Counted from the first letter of the stretch, positions 14,579 through 38,707 are shown. The stretch is 38,707 nt of DNA from a virus (IMGVR_UViG_2529292997_000008:1-38707), one strand, 5' to 3'. Notes: a model not told the origin generated them from the letters alone. Numbers and translations are program-made.

Positions 14579-14755
14579 ATGTCTTTTGAGAATTACCAAT
14601 GGCATGACGACTATGAACGGGAAAGTGTCATGCGTGCAATGTGCAGTGTATGCAGCACGAAGAAGGGAGAATGTAACGAGTGCAACGAATGCGTAGATCG
14701 CTTGCTAAGGGCTGGACACGCCGAAAGGCTGAACGAAACAGAGAATCAAGAATAA
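14579..14755 (+). CDS. small Cys-rich protein (58 aa)
   Basis: AAGGAGAGAG RBS; CSVCS and CNECNEC motifs; overlaps ninG start region. Confidence 0.35.
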   Translation: MSFENYQWHDDYERESVMRAMCSVCSTKKGECNECNECVDRLLRAGHAERLNETENQE

Positions 14756-14769
14756 TCGGGGTGGTTTTT

Positions 14770-15375
14770 ATGCAAAACCCTAAGAAACCAATAAGACGCC
14801 GTTGCAAATGCTGCGGCGTTTTTTTTGAGCCTAAATATCACAATCAAACGTGGTGCAGCGATGAATGTCTGGAAGAACTGAAGTTTGACCAGCTATGCCG
14901 CGACCGTGAGAAGGCTATGAAGGCTATGGAGCGGAAGAAACGCCGTGATAGCCAGAGGGAAGAACGCAACCGGAAGCGTAAACAGTTAAATCCGCGTAGT
15001 TATTGGATCAAACAAGTTCAAAATGTATTTAACGCCTATATTCGCGAACGTGACGCGCGCTTGCCGTGTATATCTTGCGGGACTTACTACGGTGAGCAAT
15101 GCGGGTGGGATGCAGGTCATTACAGGACGGTAGCCGCCGCCGGACACCTTCGCTTCAACGAGGATAATTGCCATAAGCAATGTAGGCACTGCAACCAGAC
15201 ACTAGACGGCAGCATCGGAGGGTATCGCCCGGCACTGATTCGAAAAATTGGCCTCGCAAGGGTGGTAGCACTGGAAAACAACAATGATACGCATAAATGG
15301 ACGATCGCAGAATGTAAGGAGCTAATAAACATCTATCAGGCGAAATTGGACGCCTTAAGGAGAAAGGCAGCATGA
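14770..15375 (+). CDS. ninG: NinG/Rap-family recombination protein
   Basis: Track ORF trimmed to MQNPKKPIRRRCKCCG; strong match to lambda NinG core (RSYWIKQ..ERD..LPCISCGT..WDAGHYRT.AAA..LRFNE.N.HKQC..CNQ). Confidence 0.85.
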   Translation: MQNPKKPIRRRCKCCGVFFEPKYHNQTWCSDECLEELKFDQLCRDREKAMKAMERKKRRDSQREERNRKRKQLNPRSYWIKQVQNVFNAYIRERDARLPCISCGTYYGEQCGWDAGHYRTVAAAGHLRFNEDNCHKQCRHCNQTLDGSIGGYRPALIRKIGLARVVALENNNDTHKWTIAECKELINIYQAKLDALRRKAA

Positions 15376-15779
15376 ATGAATATACTTTTAGCCTGCCTTA
15401 CCCGCCATCGAATAACCGCTATTACCGACATTCACGGGGTTTTCACTATATCAGCGAAGTGGGGAAGGAATACCGGGAACAAGTAAAAGACATCATCGAA
15501 TTATTAAATCTAGACATTAACCTGTCTTGCCGACTGGCAATCGCCATTTATGCCGCGCCGCCTGATAACCGGACCAGGGATCTTGATAATATCCCTAAAT
15601 GCCTATTTGACAGCCTTACTTATGCCGGATTTTGGAAAGATGATGGACAAATTGACTCAATAAAAATTGTCCGCTGCCGGAAGGTAAAAGGCGGACGCTT
15701 GTTTATTAAGATCCGCGAACGCGGCGACCTACTACCGGATATTGACGAATACGCGACTAATATGTGGGGTGAGCAATGA
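15372..15779 (+). CDS. rusA: RusA-family Holliday junction resolvase
   Basis: 135 aa; LPYPPSNNRYYRH, RDLDN, GGRL motifs as in E. coli RusA; ATGA overlap. Confidence 0.9.
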   Translation: MNEYTFSLPYPPSNNRYYRHSRGFHYISEVGKEYREQVKDIIELLNLDINLSCRLAIAIYAAPPDNRTRDLDNIPKCLFDSLTYAGFWKDDGQIDSIKIVRCRKVKGGRLFIKIRERGDLLPDIDEYATNMWGEQ

Positions 15780-15958
15780 AAAACGAAGTTAAAGATCTGC
15801 AAATAGATATTCAGCGCGATGAGCATGATTTAGCTACAGTCCGACAAATCCGGGCTTTTCATATGCGCGAATTGCTTGCATTGAAAGAGCTTGAGAAAAA
15901 GTTAGTCCAGTCTATTTCTGATCGTAAACAACTTATTGCTCGTTACGGGGGGAAATAA
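15776..15958 (+). CDS. hypothetical protein
   Basis: 60 aa; overlapping start/stop. Confidence 0.5.
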   Translation: MKNEVKDLQIDIQRDEHDLATVRQIRAFHMRELLALKELEKKLVQSISDRKQLIARYGGK

Positions 15959-16680
15959 TGAATTTAGAATCCATTCTGAAATTCCACTTTCCCAAATCAC
16001 CGCGATTATCAGACGAAAGCCGGGGCACATCCCCGGATGCGCTTAATACGACTGATGCGCTAACCGCTGCAGGTATGGCGCAATCGCGCGTAGAGCTTGG
16101 TTACAGCGCTTTTTTAGGGAAGATGGAACTATCGCAAGCCGAAAAACACAGGGCCGTAGTTTTGCTTACAGAGCGTTTAAGAGCTATGGCAAAAGATTAC
16201 GAATACGTCATGGAGCTGGACGAGGACAAACGCAATGATCTTATTATTCTTGTTGCCGTTTTCGCGTTTCGGGATTACTGCCAGAGTGCCGCGACAGAAA
16301 AAACTTGTATGGATTGCGGCGGATATAAATTTACGTTTGACGACTACGGAGAAAAACACCTTTGCAAAAAATGCAAGGGGCATGGAAAAGTTCGCAATCA
16401 TTGTAAACGATGCAAAGGGCGCGGCGAGATACCGGATAAAGCAGCCAGTGAAGCAGCGGAAATGCCAGTGTTCAAAACGTGCCAGCATTGCGGCGGGCGC
16501 GGGTACTCGCGTTTCCCTGTAGATCTTGTCCGGCGTGCGGTTAATCAGCTTGTATTTCCGGTAAGCCGATCAACATGGTGGAAAAAATACCGGGTTTTCT
16601 ATGAAGACGCCATCGCTGAATTGTTCAAGGAAGAGGCGCGGGCTGATAACGAAATTAAACGAGTTACGCGGGGTGAATGA
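15958..16680 (+). CDS. Cys-rich protein with four CxxCxGxG repeats; possible Q-type late antiterminator
   Basis: 240 aa; CMDCGGYK, CKKCKGHGK, CKRCKGRGE, CQHCGGRGY; sits after ninG-rusA where Q normally lies; function uncertain. Confidence 0.4.
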   Translation: MNLESILKFHFPKSPRLSDESRGTSPDALNTTDALTAAGMAQSRVELGYSAFLGKMELSQAEKHRAVVLLTERLRAMAKDYEYVMELDEDKRNDLIILVAVFAFRDYCQSAATEKTCMDCGGYKFTFDDYGEKHLCKKCKGHGKVRNHCKRCKGRGEIPDKAASEAAEMPVFKTCQHCGGRGYSRFPVDLVRRAVNQLVFPVSRSTWWKKYRVFYEDAIAELFKEEARADNEIKRVTRGE

Positions 16681-16883
16681 TGGATAAACTGGAAATAAAC
16701 GATCAGTTTGCCGTTATCTTGTTCGAAGATAAAACAGGCGGCGCATGGTGTAAGAAAGTCACTGGTGCTGAAGCACGCTTAATATTGGGTATGGCAAGCG
16801 CGTTAAATGATGGCGAATTGCCAGCCGTGCCAATTAAGCCAGTACATATTTACGGACGGAGTAACGACAATGAAAATACTTAA
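16677..16883 (+). CDS. hypothetical protein
   Basis: 68 aa track ORF. Confidence 0.45.
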   Translation: MMDKLEINDQFAVILFEDKTGGAWCKKVTGAEARLILGMASALNDGELPAVPIKPVHIYGRSNDNENT

Positions 16884-17217
16884 CATTGGGTGGCTGTATT
16901 GCGAAAACTGCGACGACGATGGCATGGTCGTAAAAACCGAAAAAGGTTGCGGCCTCATGCTGTATCAAGGTGATAAATTCGTTTGTCCTCGCTGCGGCGG
17001 CGGTGGTGAGATAGAAATTGTTAATGATATTGCTACAGCATATAAGCCATCTCGCATTGCCCTTGATGAAAAAATAAAAATTCATCCTTATTTATTACAG
17101 CAAATTATCGATCACGTATCGGCAGCCGCAATCTATAGCGGTAACAATTATCAGCGAGAAATGAACGTCAAACGTGCGATTGAGCAGTATTTCGAAGGTG
17201 ACGACAATGAAGCCTAA
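16870..17217 (+). CDS. zinc-ribbon protein
   Basis: Track ORF trimmed to ATG after GGAG RBS; CENC..(N)..CPRCGG motif. Confidence 0.5.
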   Translation: MKILNIGWLYCENCDDDGMVVKTEKGCGLMLYQGDKFVCPRCGGGGEIEIVNDIATAYKPSRIALDEKIKIHPYLLQQIIDHVSAAAIYSGNNYQREMNVKRAIEQYFEGDDNEA

Positions 17218-17476
17218 ATTAAAAGAGCATGAATTTAGGGATCTCATAAACGGAATAACCGATAAAGCTAGGATGTACTCAAATGCGCAACAGTTAAGGG
17301 CGGTTATAGTTACGGAATTAATGAAATACATTGAGCCATGCGGACCAGGCGACGAAATGACTATGGATAAGGCCATCAAGCGCCGTTCGGCTGATTGGTC
17401 GGTTAGTAACACTGGATTAACCGGATACATTGAAGGCTATAACGACTGTTTACAGGATCATGGCAATGAAAAGTAA
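17207..17476 (+). CDS. hypothetical protein
   Basis: Trimmed to ATG after GAAGGTGA. Confidence 0.45.
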   Translation: MKPKLKEHEFRDLINGITDKARMYSNAQQLRAVIVTELMKYIEPCGPGDEMTMDKAIKRRSADWSVSNTGLTGYIEGYNDCLQDHGNEK

Positions 17477-17681
17477 CCGCAAGCGCCTTGTAAGGGCATA
17501 CGATAAAGCATTAAAGGCTTTTGATGATCTGCGACACAATAAGCGCCAGCGCCGCAAATGGGCGCGTATGCTTGTTTATGAGTGGCATTATTCTGATGCT
17601 TTCATGGAAAGTGCGCCGCTATTAACACAGGAACAAGCCGACGAAGTAGCTAACGATAACGTTTATTATATGATGTGGTGA
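17460..17681 (+). CDS. hypothetical protein
   Basis: Trimmed track ORF 17430. Confidence 0.4.
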   Translation: MAMKSNRKRLVRAYDKALKAFDDLRHNKRQRRKWARMLVYEWHYSDAFMESAPLLTQEQADEVANDNVYYMMW

Positions 17682-17685
17682 TAAT

Positions 17686-18051
17686 ATGCAAATAATCATT
17701 GATTATCTTTGCCATGCTGCAAATACGCTTTTTGGTTTTTATCAACAACCATTCCTCAAAGAATGGGACGAAATGCTTAATGACATCATTGATAAAGGGT
17801 TAATAGTTGAGGTTGGCGAGCTAACGATAAAATTTAATTACGAAGGCAAAGAATATGATATATGGGTAGGTAACAGATGGTACGCATACGGGCATATTTA
17901 TTCAATTGGCGGCAAATACATTAAACGTAGCCAGGAGTTCAGGCCGCGATTCCGCACAATGCGCCGCCTGCGTGACCTGCATATGAATATATTTGAAAAT
18001 CAGGAAGCGTGTGAACTATTCAAAATCTACGGAGATAAATCATGGAACTAA
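17686..18051 (+). CDS. hypothetical protein
   Basis: 121 aa track ORF. Confidence 0.5.
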   Translation: MQIIIDYLCHAANTLFGFYQQPFLKEWDEMLNDIIDKGLIVEVGELTIKFNYEGKEYDIWVGNRWYAYGHIYSIGGKYIKRSQEFRPRFRTMRRLRDLHMNIFENQEACELFKIYGDKSWN

Positions 18052-18272
18052 AAATCTGGCAGGGTATCGACGTAGTTGATAATGAATTGTCTATGTTCGC
18101 CACTAACGGGAAACGCGTGGTGATCGCTACATGGACGCGCAACCATGATGATATAGCTTTTCGTCGCAAGGCTGCGGAGTGGCTTTTCTCTGATGAAGGC
18201 TACACGATGAATATCTCCCAGCTTGCCAGAATGAAGGATGAAAAGCTGGTTGATAGTTACACAACTGCATAG
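18042..18272 (+). CDS. hypothetical protein
   Basis: 76 aa track ORF. Confidence 0.45.
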   Translation: MELKIWQGIDVVDNELSMFATNGKRVVIATWTRNHDDIAFRRKAAEWLFSDEGYTMNISQLARMKDEKLVDSYTTA

Positions 18273-18282
18273 TGGGGCAAAT

Positions 18283-18516
18283 ATGTGTATCTATGAACAC
18301 AAGCGGGATAAAACCCGCTTTTTTGTTCGTGCTGGCGTGGCTTACCAGTATCACGACTGCGGATATATCGAGGCGCTTGCTTACGATCTGGACTTCGAAC
18401 AAGAAAAAGAATGGTTCGATTTCAAAATTTACCGGAAGCGTAAACCGACGCGCGACGAGCGACACGCTATCCGGGACTTTTTAATCAGCATAGACCGCTG
18501 GGAGACAGAGGAATGA
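18283..18516 (+). CDS. hypothetical protein
   Basis: Trimmed to ATG after GTGGGG. Confidence 0.45.
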   Translation: MCIYEHKRDKTRFFVRAGVAYQYHDCGYIEALAYDLDFEQEKEWFDFKIYRKRKPTRDERHAIRDFLISIDRWETEE

Positions 18517-18800
18517 GAGCGAAGAAAACAGCAGATCAGAAAGCGTTAGTTATCACTACAACTGATGTGTCGTTATTCACGAAGGGTGAAGAAATAGATC
18601 TTAAATTACTTTTCGGCATGTTTGAGCCACACGAAAAGCCGTGGTTCGTGCATGAAGACAAACAGGGAAATATGCGCGTAGTAGTGCCGGACAAAAACAG
18701 CGACATATTTTTTGCTATTCCAGACCCGTTACATGACGGTGAATTGCTGGCGGTATTGTTGATCGCTGATGCTGTTACTTATAAAGGGAAAGAAATATGA
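18513..18800 (+). CDS. hypothetical protein
   Basis: 95 aa; ATGA overlap. Confidence 0.5.
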   Translation: MRAKKTADQKALVITTTDVSLFTKGEEIDLKLLFGMFEPHEKPWFVHEDKQGNMRVVVPDKNSDIFFAIPDPLHDGELLAVLLIADAVTYKGKEI

Positions 18801-19024
18801 AAGTTAAATTCTTGCACGATCACGGCTACCCATCATTAAAACGCGTGGTAGGGGAAACGGTAGACGTTGTTCATTCTGATGATGTGACCTGCGTCATTTT
18901 GGGTAAAGACCTTATCGCTCACGGTGCTGATGATTACTACATTAACCCGGCGTGGTCATATACGTTTAGCCTGGGCGACTTCGTAGGCGATAAGGGGCGC
19001 GGCTTGCAAGTAGTCGAGGGTTAA
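18797..19024 (+). CDS. hypothetical protein
   Basis: 75 aa; ATGA overlap. Confidence 0.5.
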   Translation: MKVKFLHDHGYPSLKRVVGETVDVVHSDDVTCVILGKDLIAHGADDYYINPAWSYTFSLGDFVGDKGRGLQVVEG

Positions 19025-19028
19025 TATC

Positions 19029-19277
19029 ATGGACGTTTACGAAGATTTATACCTTCAAACAAATACCAGCACTTTTTATTTTTTGAAAAACGGCGTCGTA
19101 TATCGCAGCGACAACGGGGTGATAATGAAAGAGTGTTTATTTAAGCGTAAAGACCTACTCGAAGATCTGGTTTTTGCCGGGATATTTCGTAAACGTCCGG
19201 CTAACCTGGAAGAAGAAATGTTGATTGAGGTTATTAAACATGAAAATCAGGGTAAGTTATTTCCGGGCGAAAGATAA
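19029..19277 (+). CDS. hypothetical protein
   Basis: 82 aa track ORF. Confidence 0.5.
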   Translation: MDVYEDLYLQTNTSTFYFLKNGVVYRSDNGVIMKECLFKRKDLLEDLVFAGIFRKRPANLEEEMLIEVIKHENQGKLFPGER

Positions 19278-19491
19278 GGCAACAGGAAAGCGGATGGCGA
19301 TCCTGGTTAATGAAGCTAATTATATGTTTGTGCTTCAGCCGTGGTGCATAGCTGACTATAACGATGATTATCGCCGTCACGGTGCGCGGGGTGCTGTAGG
19401 GATGAAGGGATGGCAACCGCGTGACATGGAAAACTATTGTGAATGGAAATTGATAGCAAAATATACGGTCGATTATAAAGGTGTTTTCTAA
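19240..19491 (+). CDS. hypothetical protein
   Basis: Trimmed track ORF 19225; overlaps preceding gene in another frame. Confidence 0.4.
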   Translation: MKIRVSYFRAKDKATGKRMAILVNEANYMFVLQPWCIADYNDDYRRHGARGAVGMKGWQPRDMENYCEWKLIAKYTVDYKGVF

Positions 19492-19697
19492 TGTACGTCA
19501 GATGCACTGAATCAAAATCATCATGCTTTGAGGTTGGCGGAATATATACCGTAGATCACCTGACTGGTGATGAACTTAACACCCAATACATTAAAGACGA
19601 CCTCGGCGACGCGTGGCGCTATTGGGATTGCTACGCGCGTGGACACGTTACCAGTCAGTTTGGTACGGAACCGATCGCGCGTTTTGTTAAGTGGTGA
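19491..19697 (+). CDS. hypothetical protein
   Basis: 68 aa track ORF. Confidence 0.45.
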   Translation: MYVRCTESKSSCFEVGGIYTVDHLTGDELNTQYIKDDLGDAWRYWDCYARGHVTSQFGTEPIARFVKW

Positions 19698-19716
19698 GGC
19701 GTTGGACAACCATAAA

Positions 19717-19732
19717 TGTGATCTGTATCACA
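19717..19732. promoter_or_regulatory. CRP-type palindrome TGTGATCTGTATCACA
   Basis: Perfect TGTGA-N6-TCACA, flanked by AAA and A, close to the idealised CRP site; intergenic. Confidence 0.45.
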
Positions 19733-19735
19733 ATG

Positions 19736-19776
19736 TATACGAAATGGCATTGTTTCGACAGTGCCATTTTGTTATA
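19736..19776 (+). promoter_or_regulatory. inverted TACAAAATGG-type motif pair enclosing a sigma70-like promoter
   Basis: TATACGAAATGG-16 nt-CCATTTTGTTATA; TTGTTT-17-TATATA promoter inside; same architecture as 36082-36121. Confidence 0.4.
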
Positions 19777-19811
19777 TATAAGCCACGGAAAGACGGAGGG
19801 GAGGCAAGAAG

Positions 19812-19952
19812 ATGAGCGCTAACGCTAAATATCCGGCATGGGTTTTTGAGTTATACGCCCGCTACTTTGAATTGCTGGCACAAGGTGAAGAAGCATTAAG
19901 CATTGACGAGTACGCGGAGTGCTTAGGGTTTAAAGGAGACGAAGAAGCATAA
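19812..19952 (+). CDS. small protein (46 aa)
   Basis: ATG preceded by GGAGGGGAGG; below track cut-off. Confidence 0.35.
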   Translation: MSANAKYPAWVFELYARYFELLAQGEEALSIDEYAECLGFKGDEEA

Positions 19953-19995
19953 AACACGGGGCCGGATGGCCCCATCAAATCAGAAGGGTGTAATC

Positions 19996-20289
19996 ATGAA
20001 AAGCGCTAAATTTATTGCTTGCTGTTTTGTTGAAGTTCCCTATAACGATGCGTTCTATCACGCTACTTTTACCGATAAGAATGGGAATGATCACGTTATT
20101 GTCGGCAAGCGTGGTGACTGGCTTTATATAACTGATGATGATTGCATTTTCACTAAAAATCAGTTGCAAAAACTGGTTATCGGTAAACAGGAACAGGAAG
20201 GCTATCAAATCATCCCGGTGGAAAGACTGAAAAGGGAGCAGAGAATTAAACGCGCTCAAGAGGAATTAAATAACATAAAGGGTATGTGA
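19996..20289 (+). CDS. hypothetical protein
   Basis: Track ORF 19966 trimmed to ATG after AAGGGTG. Confidence 0.5.
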   Translation: MKSAKFIACCFVEVPYNDAFYHATFTDKNGNDHVIVGKRGDWLYITDDDCIFTKNQLQKLVIGKQEQEGYQIIPVERLKREQRIKRAQEELNNIKGM

Positions 20290-20290
20290 T

Positions 20291-20545
20291 ATGAAAACAA
20301 TCAGACTATGGCGCGGCAATAGCCGACTTGATGGTGAGTACATCCGCGTGATTGAAGATGTTAATCGTGGTCGGTTTTATGAATTGGCATACAGCGAAAA
20401 AAGGGAGAAAGAATATCTGAACGAATCGACCCCTATGTGGCGTAAAGTGGCTGGCCTTGCCTCAATTCTGCGCCACGGGTTTTATGCAGATCATAACACG
20501 CTAATTGATGCCGAACTGGTGACAACTCTTTACGAAGGAGAATAA
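20291..20545 (+). CDS. hypothetical protein
   Basis: 84 aa track ORF. Confidence 0.5.
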   Translation: MKTIRLWRGNSRLDGEYIRVIEDVNRGRFYELAYSEKREKEYLNESTPMWRKVAGLASILRHGFYADHNTLIDAELVTTLYEGE

Positions 20546-20548
20546 ACA

Positions 20549-20872
20549 ATGAGTAAATTTATCAGCGTTAAGGTTTTCCGTGGCAATTTTCCAGAAGATA
20601 AAGAAATTGGACAATTCGCAGGTGAACGTGGCGTATGTTTCCGTGTAGCTACTGAAGACGATGCGCACGTTAAATGCTTTCACGTATCTGAACCGCCTTT
20701 TAATGCAGACCATCTTGAAGACCTGAATAGAATTAAAAGCCTTATTTTTGCCTATCTGGCGTTCCCTGGCATAGCTGATGCTGATGTTGAATTGGTTGGG
20801 GCCGAACTGGTGGCAGAATACAAAATGACTGAAGGCGAAAACGGAGGGGTGGAAATTGAGCGCATCAAATAA
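20549..20872 (+). CDS. hypothetical protein
   Basis: 107 aa track ORF. Confidence 0.5.
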   Translation: MSKFISVKVFRGNFPEDKEIGQFAGERGVCFRVATEDDAHVKCFHVSEPPFNADHLEDLNRIKSLIFAYLAFPGIADADVELVGAELVAEYKMTEGENGGVEIERIK

Positions 20873-21107
20873 GCTGTATAAAGTCAGGTGTAAAGGCGAA
20901 TACCCTGGCTTTACGGTTGGTTGCGAATATCTGGGCCACATTGGGTACGGCCCTTTCGGTGAGTTGGGAATGAATACGATTGACGACGACGGCGACAGCA
21001 GGACGCTTGATCTTGATAGCGATGATTTCGAATACATCCCGCCAGTCACTTACCGCGTCGTCGATGATTTCCTGGCTGAACATGAAGACGAGGATGATGA
21101 TGATTGA
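20856..21107 (+). CDS. highly acidic small protein
   Basis: 83 aa; C-terminal half dominated by D/E, ending EHEDEDDDD. Confidence 0.5.
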   Translation: MSASNKLYKVRCKGEYPGFTVGCEYLGHIGYGPFGELGMNTIDDDGDSRTLDLDSDDFEYIPPVTYRVVDDFLAEHEDEDDDD

Positions 21108-21294
21108 ATGCCTTATCGCTGTGATTGTTTTGCTTTATATCGCTGGCGCGATCCTGATGTCATGTTTTATTAAGTTTAGCGGCGCTGAACCTGGTGGCCT
21201 TGAGATTCCTTTTTGGCCTGTGACTGTGTTTATCGCTTTCTTCGACGCTACGGCAGAGCAGATCAATCGAGCTATTAAGGAGCGCAAGAAATGA
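21098..21294 (+). CDS. small membrane protein
   Basis: Trimmed to ATG after GAGGA; two hydrophobic segments. Confidence 0.4.
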
Positions 21295-21470
21295 TTGAAG
21301 ATGGGGTGTACGCAACAGTAGTAGACGGGCTGTTTTACCGCGTAGAAGGTGATGATATTCGCATCCGCGTTGGCGGTGGTGAGTGGGTAGCGCCAATCAT
21401 TAAGACGACGCGAGAAACAATTAAAATATTTCTTGATGCTGGTGAACTGGTGAGGGTTAGCGACCTATGA
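21291..21470 (+). CDS. small protein (59 aa)
   Basis: ATGA overlap; N-terminus MIEDGVY resembles next ORF (MNEIEDGIY). Confidence 0.4.
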   Translation: MIEDGVYATVVDGLFYRVEGDDIRIRVGGGEWVAPIIKTTRETIKIFLDAGELVRVSDL

Positions 21471-21643
21471 ACGAGATCGAAGATGGTATCTATTTACATA
21501 AGGTATTTAACATCGTCTATTTGGTTAGAGGTGAATCGGTGATGATAAGACCTGATGATGATCCTTATTGGGAATTAAGCGACATGGATCGGTGGCATAT
21601 GCAAACATTGCTTGATAATGGCCTGATATATAGAAAGCCGTAA
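21467..21643 (+). CDS. small protein (58 aa), possible paralogue of preceding ORF
   Basis: ATGA overlap; stop lies inside the first copy of a 15-bp direct repeat. Confidence 0.4.
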   Translation: MNEIEDGIYLHKVFNIVYLVRGESVMIRPDDDPYWELSDMDRWHMQTLLDNGLIYRKP

Positions 21644-21655
21644 AGCCGTATTTGT
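21641..21655 (+). repeat. direct repeat copy 1 (TAAAGCCGTATTTGT)
   Basis: Identical 15-mer recurs at 21891-21905; both copies begin at a stop codon. Confidence 0.6.
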
Positions 21656-21665
21656 TGGGGGGAAT

Positions 21666-21893
21666 ATGGAAGAAATGGTTTTACTGTCATCAATATGGCA
21701 TCGGTTCGGAACTGAAAAAGGATACTCACCTGCTTGCTGGCTGGATAGTAAAAGCGGAAAGGAGTATCAAAACGAGTGCGAATTTAGAAGGGAGTGGCGA
21801 GGTGGTAAGGAAGTGCAAGGATATTTTGCACCAAAACACGTTGCCGCCAAATACAAAGAATGGCTTGTGCGTTTGCTTGGCCCTTATCGTTAA
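21666..21893 (+). CDS. hypothetical protein flanked by 15-bp direct repeats
   Basis: 75 aa; GGGGGGAA RBS. Confidence 0.45.
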   Translation: MEEMVLLSSIWHRFGTEKGYSPACWLDSKSGKEYQNECEFRREWRGGKEVQGYFAPKHVAAKYKEWLVRLLGPYR

Positions 21894-21905
21894 AGCCGTA
21901 TTTGT
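21891..21905 (+). repeat. direct repeat copy 2 (TAAAGCCGTATTTGT)
   Basis: Identical to 21641-21655. Confidence 0.6.
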
Positions 21906-21929
21906 AGGGCGTAAACAAACAGATTAAAA
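21902..21929 (+). promoter_or_regulatory. candidate late promoter (TTGTAG-16-TAAAAT) upstream of a terminator and the lysis genes
   Basis: Promoter-like hexamers about 30 nt upstream of hairpin 21959-21981; resembles lambdoid PR'-tR' layout. Confidence 0.35.
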
Positions 21930-21958
21930 TATTCTCTAACAATGCGAAACTGTAACTA

Positions 21959-21981
21959 CCCGGCCCAGCGCCGGGTTTTTG
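21959..21981 (+). terminator. rho-independent terminator upstream of holin (tR'-like)
   Basis: CCCGGC-CCAGC-GCCGGG hairpin followed by TTTTTG. Confidence 0.7.
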
Positions 21982-22000
21982 CTTTGTTGGAGGTAAATCT

Positions 22001-22201
22001 ATGTTCGACAAAATACGGGCGGCGTGCGCTTATGTAACAGGGACCGTAACCGCTTTTTTTGGTGCGATAACCATTAATGACGTTGCCGTCTTTGTGGGTA
22101 TCTTATCAACCATTGGCACATTTGCCGTTAACTATTACTTCAAATCACAGGAGAACAAGCGAGCGCAAGAGGAACACGACGCACGAATGGGGAATAAGTA
22201 A
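22001..22201 (+). CDS. holin, class II / pinholin-like
   Basis: 66 aa; two TM segments, charged C-terminus; immediately precedes SAR endolysin. Confidence 0.75.
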
Positions 22202-22202
22202 C

Positions 22203-22694
22203 ATGATTAGCCAATCGCTAAAGAATAAAATTATTGCTGCGGCGGCTGGTGGGGCTATCGCTATTGCGGCTGTGATGGTTAAACCATTGGAAGGCGTGGA
22301 ATATGATCCTTATCGTGATGTTGTCGGTGTATGGACTGTTTGCCACGGTCACACCGGAAAGGACATCATGCTTGGTAAGACTTACACGCAATTTGAATGC
22401 GATGCTTTGTTGAACAAAGATCTACACAAAACCGCAAAAGCGATTGACCCATATATCAAAGTCGAAATATCAGATTTTACCCGCGCAGCACTTTATTCAT
22501 TCGCCTATAACGTAGGCGCAACCAACTTCAAAACATCAACCTTATTAAAGCTACTTAATGACGGCAAGAAATCGGAAGCGTGCGCACAGCTTAAACGCTG
22601 GGTATACGCTGGCGGTAAGAAGTGGCAAGGCCTGGTTAACCGCCGTGATATTGAATATGCCGTTTGCGAATGGGGTGAAACATGGACAAGGTGA
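22203..22694 (+). CDS. SAR endolysin (phage lysozyme, R21-like)
   Basis: Trimmed to MISQSLKNK; Gly/Ala-rich SAR segment then [34 protein letters not shown], near-identical to phage 21 lysozyme core as recalled. Confidence 0.9.
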
Positions 22695-23152
22695 AGACGT
22701 TAATCATCGCCGTTGTTGTTTGCATTATTGCCGGGCTTACCGCCGTAACGTGTTATTACCAGGGTGAGGCGGCAAGGTTACAGGAAGAAGTCACGGTGAC
22801 GAAAGGCGCACTAAAAACAGCAAGTAACACTATCCAGCAGATGAAGGAGCGAAACGCCGAACTGTCAAAACTTGATAAGAGGTATCACGATGAGATTAAA
22901 GCTATCAGATCTGACATTGCCGATCTTCGCGCTGGCATTGATAGCGGTGCTATCAGGTTGCACGTCAACGCCGAGCCAGTGTACGTGCACGACGCCACCG
23001 GAACCGCCAGCAGCATTAATGGAGCCACCTGTAGACTTACTGCCAGTGCTCAATCAAATTATCTATCCCTCAGAGAACAACTAAAAGAGAAAGACGCGAA
23101 GATCACCGGATTACAGGACTACATCAAAACGCAGTGCATACGCAAAGAATAA
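22682..23152 (+). CDS. Rz: Rz-type i-spanin
   Basis: 156 aa; N-terminal TM helix then coiled-coil periplasmic domain; overlaps endolysin end. Confidence 0.8.
22890..23084 (+). CDS. Rz1: Rz1-type o-spanin lipoprotein embedded in Rz (+1 frame)
   Basis: Lipobox LSGC, proline-rich mature region; wholly inside Rz. Confidence 0.7.
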   Translation: MRLKLSDLTLPIFALALIAVLSGCTSTPSQCTCTTPPEPPAALMEPPVDLLPVLNQIIYPSENN

Positions 23153-38540: not shown

Positions 38541-38568
38541 CACAGAAAACCCCCAGCTAGGCTGGGGG
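38541..38568 (-). terminator. candidate convergent terminator for minus-strand transcription from beyond the window
   Basis: CCCCCAGC-TAG-GCTGGGGG hairpin with T-run on the minus strand only. Confidence 0.4.
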
Positions 38569-38707
38569 TTCCGGAAAGCTTTCAGCTTTAAGCCAGTTAT
38601 TAAAACCCCTTTTGATTTGTTAAAACACCTTGCGGTCTGGCAACTGCAAGTGTCAAACAAGAAATCAAAAGGGGGTCCCAATGGGGAACGAAAAGAGCTT
38701 AGCGCAC

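Follow-up and report, generated by a model that had tools for sequence, protein, structure and literature searches.

A characterized relative of the gene analyzed here is the late antiterminator Q of phage lambda. This protein consists of three parts. Its N-terminal 60 residues are disordered, and the first 44 of them, together with NusA, refold to give a torus at the RNA-exit channel. The four-helix body includes a helix-turn-helix (HTH), and the "arm" (residues 114-152) is a zinc ribbon that touches the Q-binding element at positions 11-13 and, with its tip, sigma region 4 (PMC9388147). In the crystal structure, a single zinc is bound by the cysteine pairs on either side of the arm loop (PMC9388147). 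Phages of the mEpimmI group are Nus-dependent and possess an N-like protein, Gp17, three nut sites and a "Q-lambda-like" protein (PMC11893012); experiments on the Q of these phages are not reported in that paper.

The window, i.e., the whole stretch of viral DNA that was analyzed (38,707 nt), comes from a mEp021-like (mEpimmI) temperate coliphage. Its Q gene (15958..16680, +) starts with ATG and encodes a protein of 240 aa, a late antiterminator of the lambda Q family in its long-arm form; the open reading frame is real and has exactly the boundaries proposed earlier from the DNA sequence. The gene was also correctly placed at the Q position, since ninG (14680..15375, +; PF05766, 1.9e-65) and rusA (15372..15779, +; PF05866, 7.3e-16) are encoded just upstream, and the lambda Q gene likewise follows ninG and rusA. 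The protein is 96% identical to the Q protein of phage mEp013 and 84% identical to that of MagusPhagus. In close relatives, the gene is already annotated as Q: gp37 of mEp021 (MH706966, AXN54156; 240 aa) is a "putative late gene regulator Q" and the MagusPhagus homologue an "anti-termination protein Q-like"; the homologues of mEp013 and mEp554 are labelled hypothetical. Near-identical "antitermination protein" clusters were found in E. coli prophages (P0001 and P0002, 96% identity, with 981 member sequences in P0001). These clusters and mEp021 gp37 are of the same 240-aa type as the window Q, with four zinc knuckles, the same neighbours and the same terminator-holin junction, and are annotated by similarity only. 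The annotation can be regarded as settled, the gene being the Q antiterminator of this phage.

Our analysis identified the gene as an ordinary full-length member of the lambda Q family and ruled out a distinct new regulator. The protein matches Pfam family PF03589 (Antiterm) with 102.3 bits (gathering cut-off, GA, 26.7), as do all 124 aligned homologues, and PHROG 127, "anti-termination protein Q-like", over residues 1-238 (7e-79); a PF27659 domain has been precomputed for its relatives. The best sequence match in the PDB is lambda Q (7ubm/7ubn, 3e-39), followed by 4mo1 (1e-25). HMMER aligned residues 1-122 (lambda 1-123) and 148-238 of the window Q to lambda Q, and the two proteins are 40% identical in the MAFFT alignment. 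No match at E <= 1 to the Q21 (PF06530) and Q82 (PF06323) families (accessions from PMC9388147) was found in the Pfam scan of the protein. The AlphaFold2 model built from the 124-sequence alignment (pLDDT 86.2, pTM 0.76) contains the four-helix body with the HTH and the zinc-ribbon arm that make up the lambda Q fold. In the Foldseek search with this model, the top matches were seven lambda Q chains (E from 3e-15 for 7ubn_Q to 3e-7), and nothing significant was found beyond them, the next match having an E of 0.9. Both the family membership and the predicted fold are established computationally.

The sequence-only reading had described the protein as resembling the cysteine-rich domain of DnaJ rather than a classic Q fold, and had left open whether it was a divergent member of the Q family or a different late regulator. 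As PF03589, PHROG 127 and the lambda Q structures all match, the gene at the Q position does encode a Q-family member, and its end-to-end match to a characterized Q family rejects the different regulator. Membership in the family was thus rightly suspected, while "divergent" overstated the case, the four-knuckle pattern being the commonest one in the lambda Q family. Nor is the fold a non-classic one: lambda Q is matched across residues 1 to 238, lambda Q itself has a sub-threshold match to the DnaJ profile PF00684, and a CxxCxGxG zinc ribbon belongs to the classic lambda Q fold (CRDCHGTG and CGRCKGVG). The profile comparisons suggested earlier gave a clear result for lambda Q, none for Q21 or Q82 and a sub-threshold one for the DnaJ domain, and in structure prediction, also suggested earlier, the structures closest to the model were lambda Q chains. 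A clear profile match to a characterized Q family, which the sequence-only reading had named as refuting it, was thus obtained, with a cysteine pattern that is not lambda's own.

The window Q is collinear with lambda Q over its full length and has the same predicted fold; like lambda Q (PF03589; PDB 4MO1, 7UBJ-7UBN), it has a torus segment, a helical body with the HTH, and a CxxCxGxG ribbon with a 26-aa spacing. The N-terminal segment equivalent to the torus (nozzle), aa 1-44 (15958..16089, +), is the region best conserved with respect to lambda Q (57% identity); lambda G39 is retained as G39, and V6 is replaced by I6. By analogy with lambda, this segment would play the torus role in the window Q as well. 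The second half of the body (aa 184-240; 16507..16677, +) corresponds in the alignment to the HTH and the C-terminal helix, lambda T206 being T237; helices 188-198 and 204-238 are present in the model, and the HTH was assigned by homology to lambda Q (PMC9388147). The DNA-recognition residues of the two proteins differ, and hence a different Q-binding element is expected.

The arm of the window Q (aa 114-183; 16297..16506, +) has four zinc knuckles and is about 32 aa longer than the lambda arm. The zinc ligands of lambda Q lie in two knuckles, whereas the window Q has two further cysteine pairs. Its four CxxC knuckles (C117-MD-C-GGYK, C136-KK-C-KGHG, C149-KR-C-KGRG, and C175-QH-C-GGRG) start at aa 117, 136, 149, and 175, with spacings of 19, 13, and 26 aa, and are all contained in 62 residues; four or more CxxC motifs arose in a fraction of 7e-5 of 200,000 shuffles of the protein. 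Four CxxCxGxG repeats had been claimed for this stretch. Four knuckles are indeed present, of which three are strict; the first fits CxxCxG only, with K in the last position (CxxCxGxK), and is a full CxxCxGxG in relatives with 82-90% identity (P0005-P0008). Knuckle 3 (CKRCKGRG, aa 149-156; 16402..16425, +) is equivalent to lambda C118/C121, and knuckle 4 (CQHCGGRG, aa 175-182; 16480..16503, +), 26 aa from it as in lambda, to C144/C147, so that the lambda zinc ligands C118, C121, C144, and C147 correspond to C149, C152, C175, and C178, which are invariant in the family. The loop between these knuckles, with a tip helix at 161-167, resembles the lambda loop (lambda E134 being E165). Knuckle 1 (CMDCGGYK, aa 117-124; 16306..16329, +) and knuckle 2 (CKKCKGHG, aa 136-143; 16363..16386, +) have no counterpart in lambda Q; together with the short beta-hairpin between them (strands 125-127 and 133-135 in the model), they extend the arm by 32 residues at its N-terminal side. 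All eight cysteines, C117 and C120 of knuckle 1 among them, are invariant in the alignment of 124 homologues, a conservation that is established computationally.

The cysteine-rich "DnaJ-like" stretch is thus an enlarged version of the zinc arm of the Q family, and the arm of lambda is a cut-down one. Representatives of 50%-identity clusters were taken from an exhaustive search, and among the 58 that were full-length (at least 190 aa), 34 have three or four CxxC motifs and about ten have two, as lambda Q does; most of those with three have CxC at knuckle 3. The 124 aligned homologues come from Escherichia, Xenorhabdus, Providencia, Morganella, Proteus, Yersinia, Serratia, Pantoea, Pectobacterium, and others, and nearly all of those given a name at source are called "antitermination protein (Q)". 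The spacing between knuckles 2 and 3 is constant in the family (13), that between knuckles 3 and 4 is nearly so (25-26), and that between knuckles 1 and 2 is variable (14-59). The long arm is also found in phages phi80, HK225, S149, and Stx2c phages: phi80 gp17 (Q-like, 269 aa), the Q proteins of the other phages and Qin-type quuQ have a four-knuckle arm with the same spacings of 13 and 25-26. These proteins differ from the window Q in having 35-57 aa between knuckles 1 and 2, compared with 19, and are only 31-36% identical to it. In a large long-arm subgroup (phi80, Xenorhabdus, Providencia, Pectobacterium, and others), knuckle 3 is CxC (e.g., SCRCNGRG), both cysteines still being aligned.

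The family is well characterized, and the four-knuckle arm is the norm in it; the textbook structure of lambda Q represents its minority short-arm form. For the common long-arm form, which probably binds two zincs, there is neither a solved structure nor a defined DNA site, and nothing relevant was found in a literature search on the four-knuckle Q arm. The gap is modest, and the current understanding of Q-type antitermination is unchanged by these results.

In lambda, the late-promoter cassette is about 80 nt from the Q gene, whereas the candidate cassette of the window is 5.2 kb away. The intervening block consists of about 20 tightly packed small ORFs (16677..21893, +), the first of which overlaps the Q stop codon (ATGA), with PHROG matches that are all or nearly all of "unknown function". 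Comparison of the block at 16677-21893 with four other loci (L001, L003, L004, and L005) showed that it is hypervariable, with a length of about 2 kb in mEp021, about 3 kb in mEp013, 5.2 kb in the window, and about 6 kb in MagusPhagus. In the mEpimmI group, a variable block of accessory genes uncouples Q from the candidate cassette. Two genes downstream of Q, a 115-aa ORF (16870-17217) has the zinc-knuckle motifs CENCDDDG and CPRCGGGG, a weak match to PHROG 4446 and no Pfam family; it may encode another small DnaJ/anti-TRAP-like zinc protein.

The candidate late promoter (PR' equivalent; 21902..21930, +) consists of a -35 box TTGTAG (21902-07), weak in that it retains 3 of 6 positions, a 17-nt spacer, and a -10 box TAAAAT (21925-30). 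The spacer (21908-21924), in which a conserved AAACAAAYRGAT is located at 21913-24, probably holds the Q-binding element. A candidate sigma-dependent pause element, AACAAT (21938..21943, +; AACGAT in lambda), is found 7 nt after the -10 box, and an intrinsic terminator, equivalent to tR', was identified in the terminator scan at 21958..21983 (+), with a stem CCCGGCC/GCCGGG and then a U-run (fold -22.1 kcal/mol, z -3.5). It is the first strong intrinsic terminator at a suitable position and ends about 45 nt after the putative transcription start; its stem is invariant in relatives, and a terminator is annotated at the equivalent site in mEp021 and mEp013. A conserved AAACAAACAGAT lies within the promoter/pause/terminator stretch (21880-22000). 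The first late gene past the terminator encodes the holin (22001..22201, +; PF16080, 4.5e-16; PHROG 20, holin), with its ATG 17 nt downstream of the terminator. The lysis genes continue with the endolysin (lysozyme; 22203..22694, +; PF00959, 2.2e-43) and the Rz spanin (22682..23152, +; PF03245, 1.1e-24), within which an embedded Rz1-like lipoprotein ORF (22872-23084) is present in the ORF list.

The layout of the candidate cassette, TTGTAG-17-TAAAAT-7-AACAAT-14-terminator, is the same as that of lambda PR' (TTGACT-17-TAAATT-6-AACGAT) and of phi80, whose annotation includes pR', the Q site, and a promoter-proximal terminator, and is shared by the PR' regions of HK225, S149, and Stx2c phages. 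The cassettes of phi80, HK225, S149, and Stx2c phages, which have promoter-proximal terminators, directly follow Q, whereas that of the window is remote; the terminated leader is about 190 nt in lambda (counted from L002) and would be about 45 nt in the window. In five related phages the cassette is retained, except for the -35 box, which is replaced in MagusPhagus, and the block from AAACAAA to the terminator is nearly invariant. Of the 65 distinct IMG/VR loci that were examined downstream of a long-arm Q gene, 22 fit the strict layout pattern, and nearly all the others proved on reading to be variants of it, with -35 boxes such as TTTACT or TTTACA; the AACAAT element is identical in one of the IMG/VR loci (L074). 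The bare promoter/pause pattern occurs three times in the window, with 1.3 matches expected from shuffling, and is not discriminating alone; the assignment of the cassette therefore rests on its position, the terminator, and conservation. While the presence and conservation of the cassette are established computationally, the stretch 21902-21983 is the putative site of action of Q. For the mEp021-like group, on whose Q system no experimental study was found, it provides candidates for the late promoter, the pause site, and the terminator.

A sequence resembling a lambda late promoter just past the Q stop codon (TAAACT-7-AACGAT, 16685-16703) was considered and rejected as coding sequence: it falls within the following ORF, is not accompanied by a terminator, and is absent from relatives in which the downstream gene differs (mEp021, L010, L014, and L020). 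The Rfam scan of the window yielded no match within or near the Q gene or the late cassette. A perfect 19-bp direct repeat, TAAAGCCGTATTTGTnGGG, occurs at 21641-21659 and 21891-21909 (0.03 expected by chance) and flanks a 75-aa ORF (21666-21893; PHROG 23715, unknown function). The flanks of this ORF directly adjoin each other in mEp013, mEp021, and mEp554, which suggests that the ORF was inserted precisely where the -35 region of the candidate late promoter lies.

In our view, the gene is highly likely to encode the Q protein (late-gene transcription antiterminator) of a mEp021-like (mEpimmI) coliphage, a member of the lambda Q family that acts as in lambda and whose arm is the long-form Q arm. 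The steps beyond family membership are given as conditional, since they are transferred from lambda. Q would be expressed along with the small ORFs by early rightward transcription and would use its HTH body and zinc arm to bind an element within the late-promoter spacer (21908-21924). It would then engage RNA polymerase paused at about +16 with sigma70 bound to AACAAT, and, together with NusA, the conserved N-terminal 44 residues would fold into a ring narrowing the RNA-exit channel. Such a ring would block formation of the hairpin at +21 to +39, so that transcription could continue past the terminator (21958-21983), first through the holin, endolysin, and Rz genes and then into the structural (morphogenesis) genes. 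Antitermination activity and NusA dependence of the window Q are thus predicted by analogy. The second zinc module could provide an extra DNA contact, a contact with sigma region 4, or rigidity of the arm.

The absence of a promoter right after Q, and the continuous series of same-strand small ORFs from Q to the terminator, would also suit a Q-derived DNA-binding regulator that has lost antitermination, the late genes being reached by read-through from the early operon under the N-like Gp17; an N-like system with three nut sites does exist in these phages (PMC11893012). We consider this very unlikely, as the torus segment, which in lambda serves antitermination only and is not required for DNA binding, is more conserved than any other part of the protein (57% identity) and is invariant at many positions family-wide, and as the lysis genes are immediately preceded by a conserved promoter/pause/terminator cassette of the Q-lambda type, whereas the ORF block ahead of this cassette differs in length between phages (2 to 6 kb). 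The likeness of the arm to DnaJ, for its part, is genuine at the motif level, sub-threshold, and family-wide. PF00684 scores 26.0 bits with the whole protein and 30.8 bits with the isolated arm (GA 32.7), is matched at E <= 1e-3 by 108 of the 124 homologues, and has a sub-threshold match in lambda Q (8.9e-5); the arm profile retrieved lambda Q first (8e-11) and then DnaJ 1exk (E 2.2e-5) from the PDB. The DnaJ models (TIGR02349, PRK) match about 50 residues with at most 23 bits against cut-offs of 338-619, and neither a J domain nor a DnaJ C-terminal domain was found in the protein with Pfam and NCBIfam. Membership in the DnaJ cysteine-rich domain family was rejected, the match being below the Pfam cut-off, shared by lambda Q, and devoid of a DnaJ context. 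A DnaJ-like zinc-finger co-chaperone or protein-interaction module without a role in transcription could be derived from these sub-threshold matches to PF00684, TIGR02349, and the PRK models; however, the scores are below or far below the cut-offs, the accompanying DnaJ domains are absent, and the remainder of the protein is lambda Q end to end, a full-length homology that refutes this explanation and leaves it practically no probability.

The pairing of the knuckles is a separate question. In the DnaJ cysteine-rich domain, closely spaced adjacent motifs bind different zincs, and motifs sharing one zinc lie on either side of a beta-hairpin. Judging from the alignment, the lambda-type zinc ribbon of the window Q is made up of knuckles 3 and 4, and a second zinc is most probably bound by knuckles 1 and 2, with the beta-hairpin between them forming a second prong. 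We favor this tandem pairing (1+2, 3+4) over the nested arrangement of DnaJ (1+4, 2+3) because knuckles 3 and 4 with their loop are the lambda zinc site, because profiles align knuckles 2-3-4 with DnaJ motifs 1-2-3, so that knuckle 2 matches a motif whose partner lies elsewhere, because the 13-residue spacing between knuckles 2 and 3 resembles the DnaJ linkers that join motifs on different zincs, and because the hairpin of the model sits between knuckles 1 and 2. Were the zincs nested, the arm would be a true DnaJ-type cysteine-rich domain grafted into the Q body, and lambda Q would have arisen by loss of the inner hairpin (knuckles 2 and 3) instead of knuckles 1 and 2. Knuckle 1 does follow the conserved DYCxSAAT at the exact position of the first lambda knuckle, C117/C120 and C149/C152 are both aligned with lambda C118/C121 by HMMER, deletion of either 32-aa segment would restore the lambda spacing, and the matches of the homologues to PF00684 point the same way. 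We nevertheless regard the nested arrangement as rather unlikely: the loop between knuckles 3 and 4 aligns residue by residue with the lambda loop, the flanking cysteines of which bind a single zinc (PMC9388147), and the register of the profiles, the 13-aa spacing of knuckles 2 and 3, and the hairpin of the model fit the tandem pairing. Apart from the zinc sites, which are probably tandem instead of nested, the arm differs from the DnaJ cysteine-rich domain (PF00684; 1EXK), BSD2 (6EKB), and anti-TRAP (2BX9) in its spacings of 19, 13, and 26 aa and in its location inside a DNA-binding antiterminator, without a chaperone context.

Taken jointly, the observations allow a broader reading, to which we would give an even chance. 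Most members of the lambda Q family, among them the window Q, would carry a two-zinc, four-knuckle DnaJ/BSD2-like arm, and the single-zinc arm of lambda, the only form solved, would be a reduced derivative. A second prong, made up of the extra zinc module and its variable hairpin (11-51 residues separating knuckles 1 and 2), would contact DNA or sigma region 4 and set the specificity for the Q-binding element, and in the mEpimmI phages Q would have been split from its cassette by a 2-6 kb zone of accessory-gene accretion.

Two minor observations concern other regions. Near the end of the window (38548-38671, +), a full-length Rfam match to the Hfq-binding sRNA STnc490 (RF01405) was found, with 146 bits against a gathering score of 56. 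In lambda, a -35-like TTGACT docks sigma region 4 against the tip of the Q arm. In the IMG/VR loci L022-L089, which belong to many Enterobacterales phages, a strongly conserved late-promoter region, e.g., CTATTTACTTTTCCCGAATCTGTGTTAATTT..(T/C)AACGATGGG, is located 0-150 nt after the Q stop codon; the 6-7 nt between the -10 box and the pause element are pyrimidine-rich (CCCT, CTCT) in these long-arm loci and lack the -35-like TTGACT of lambda.
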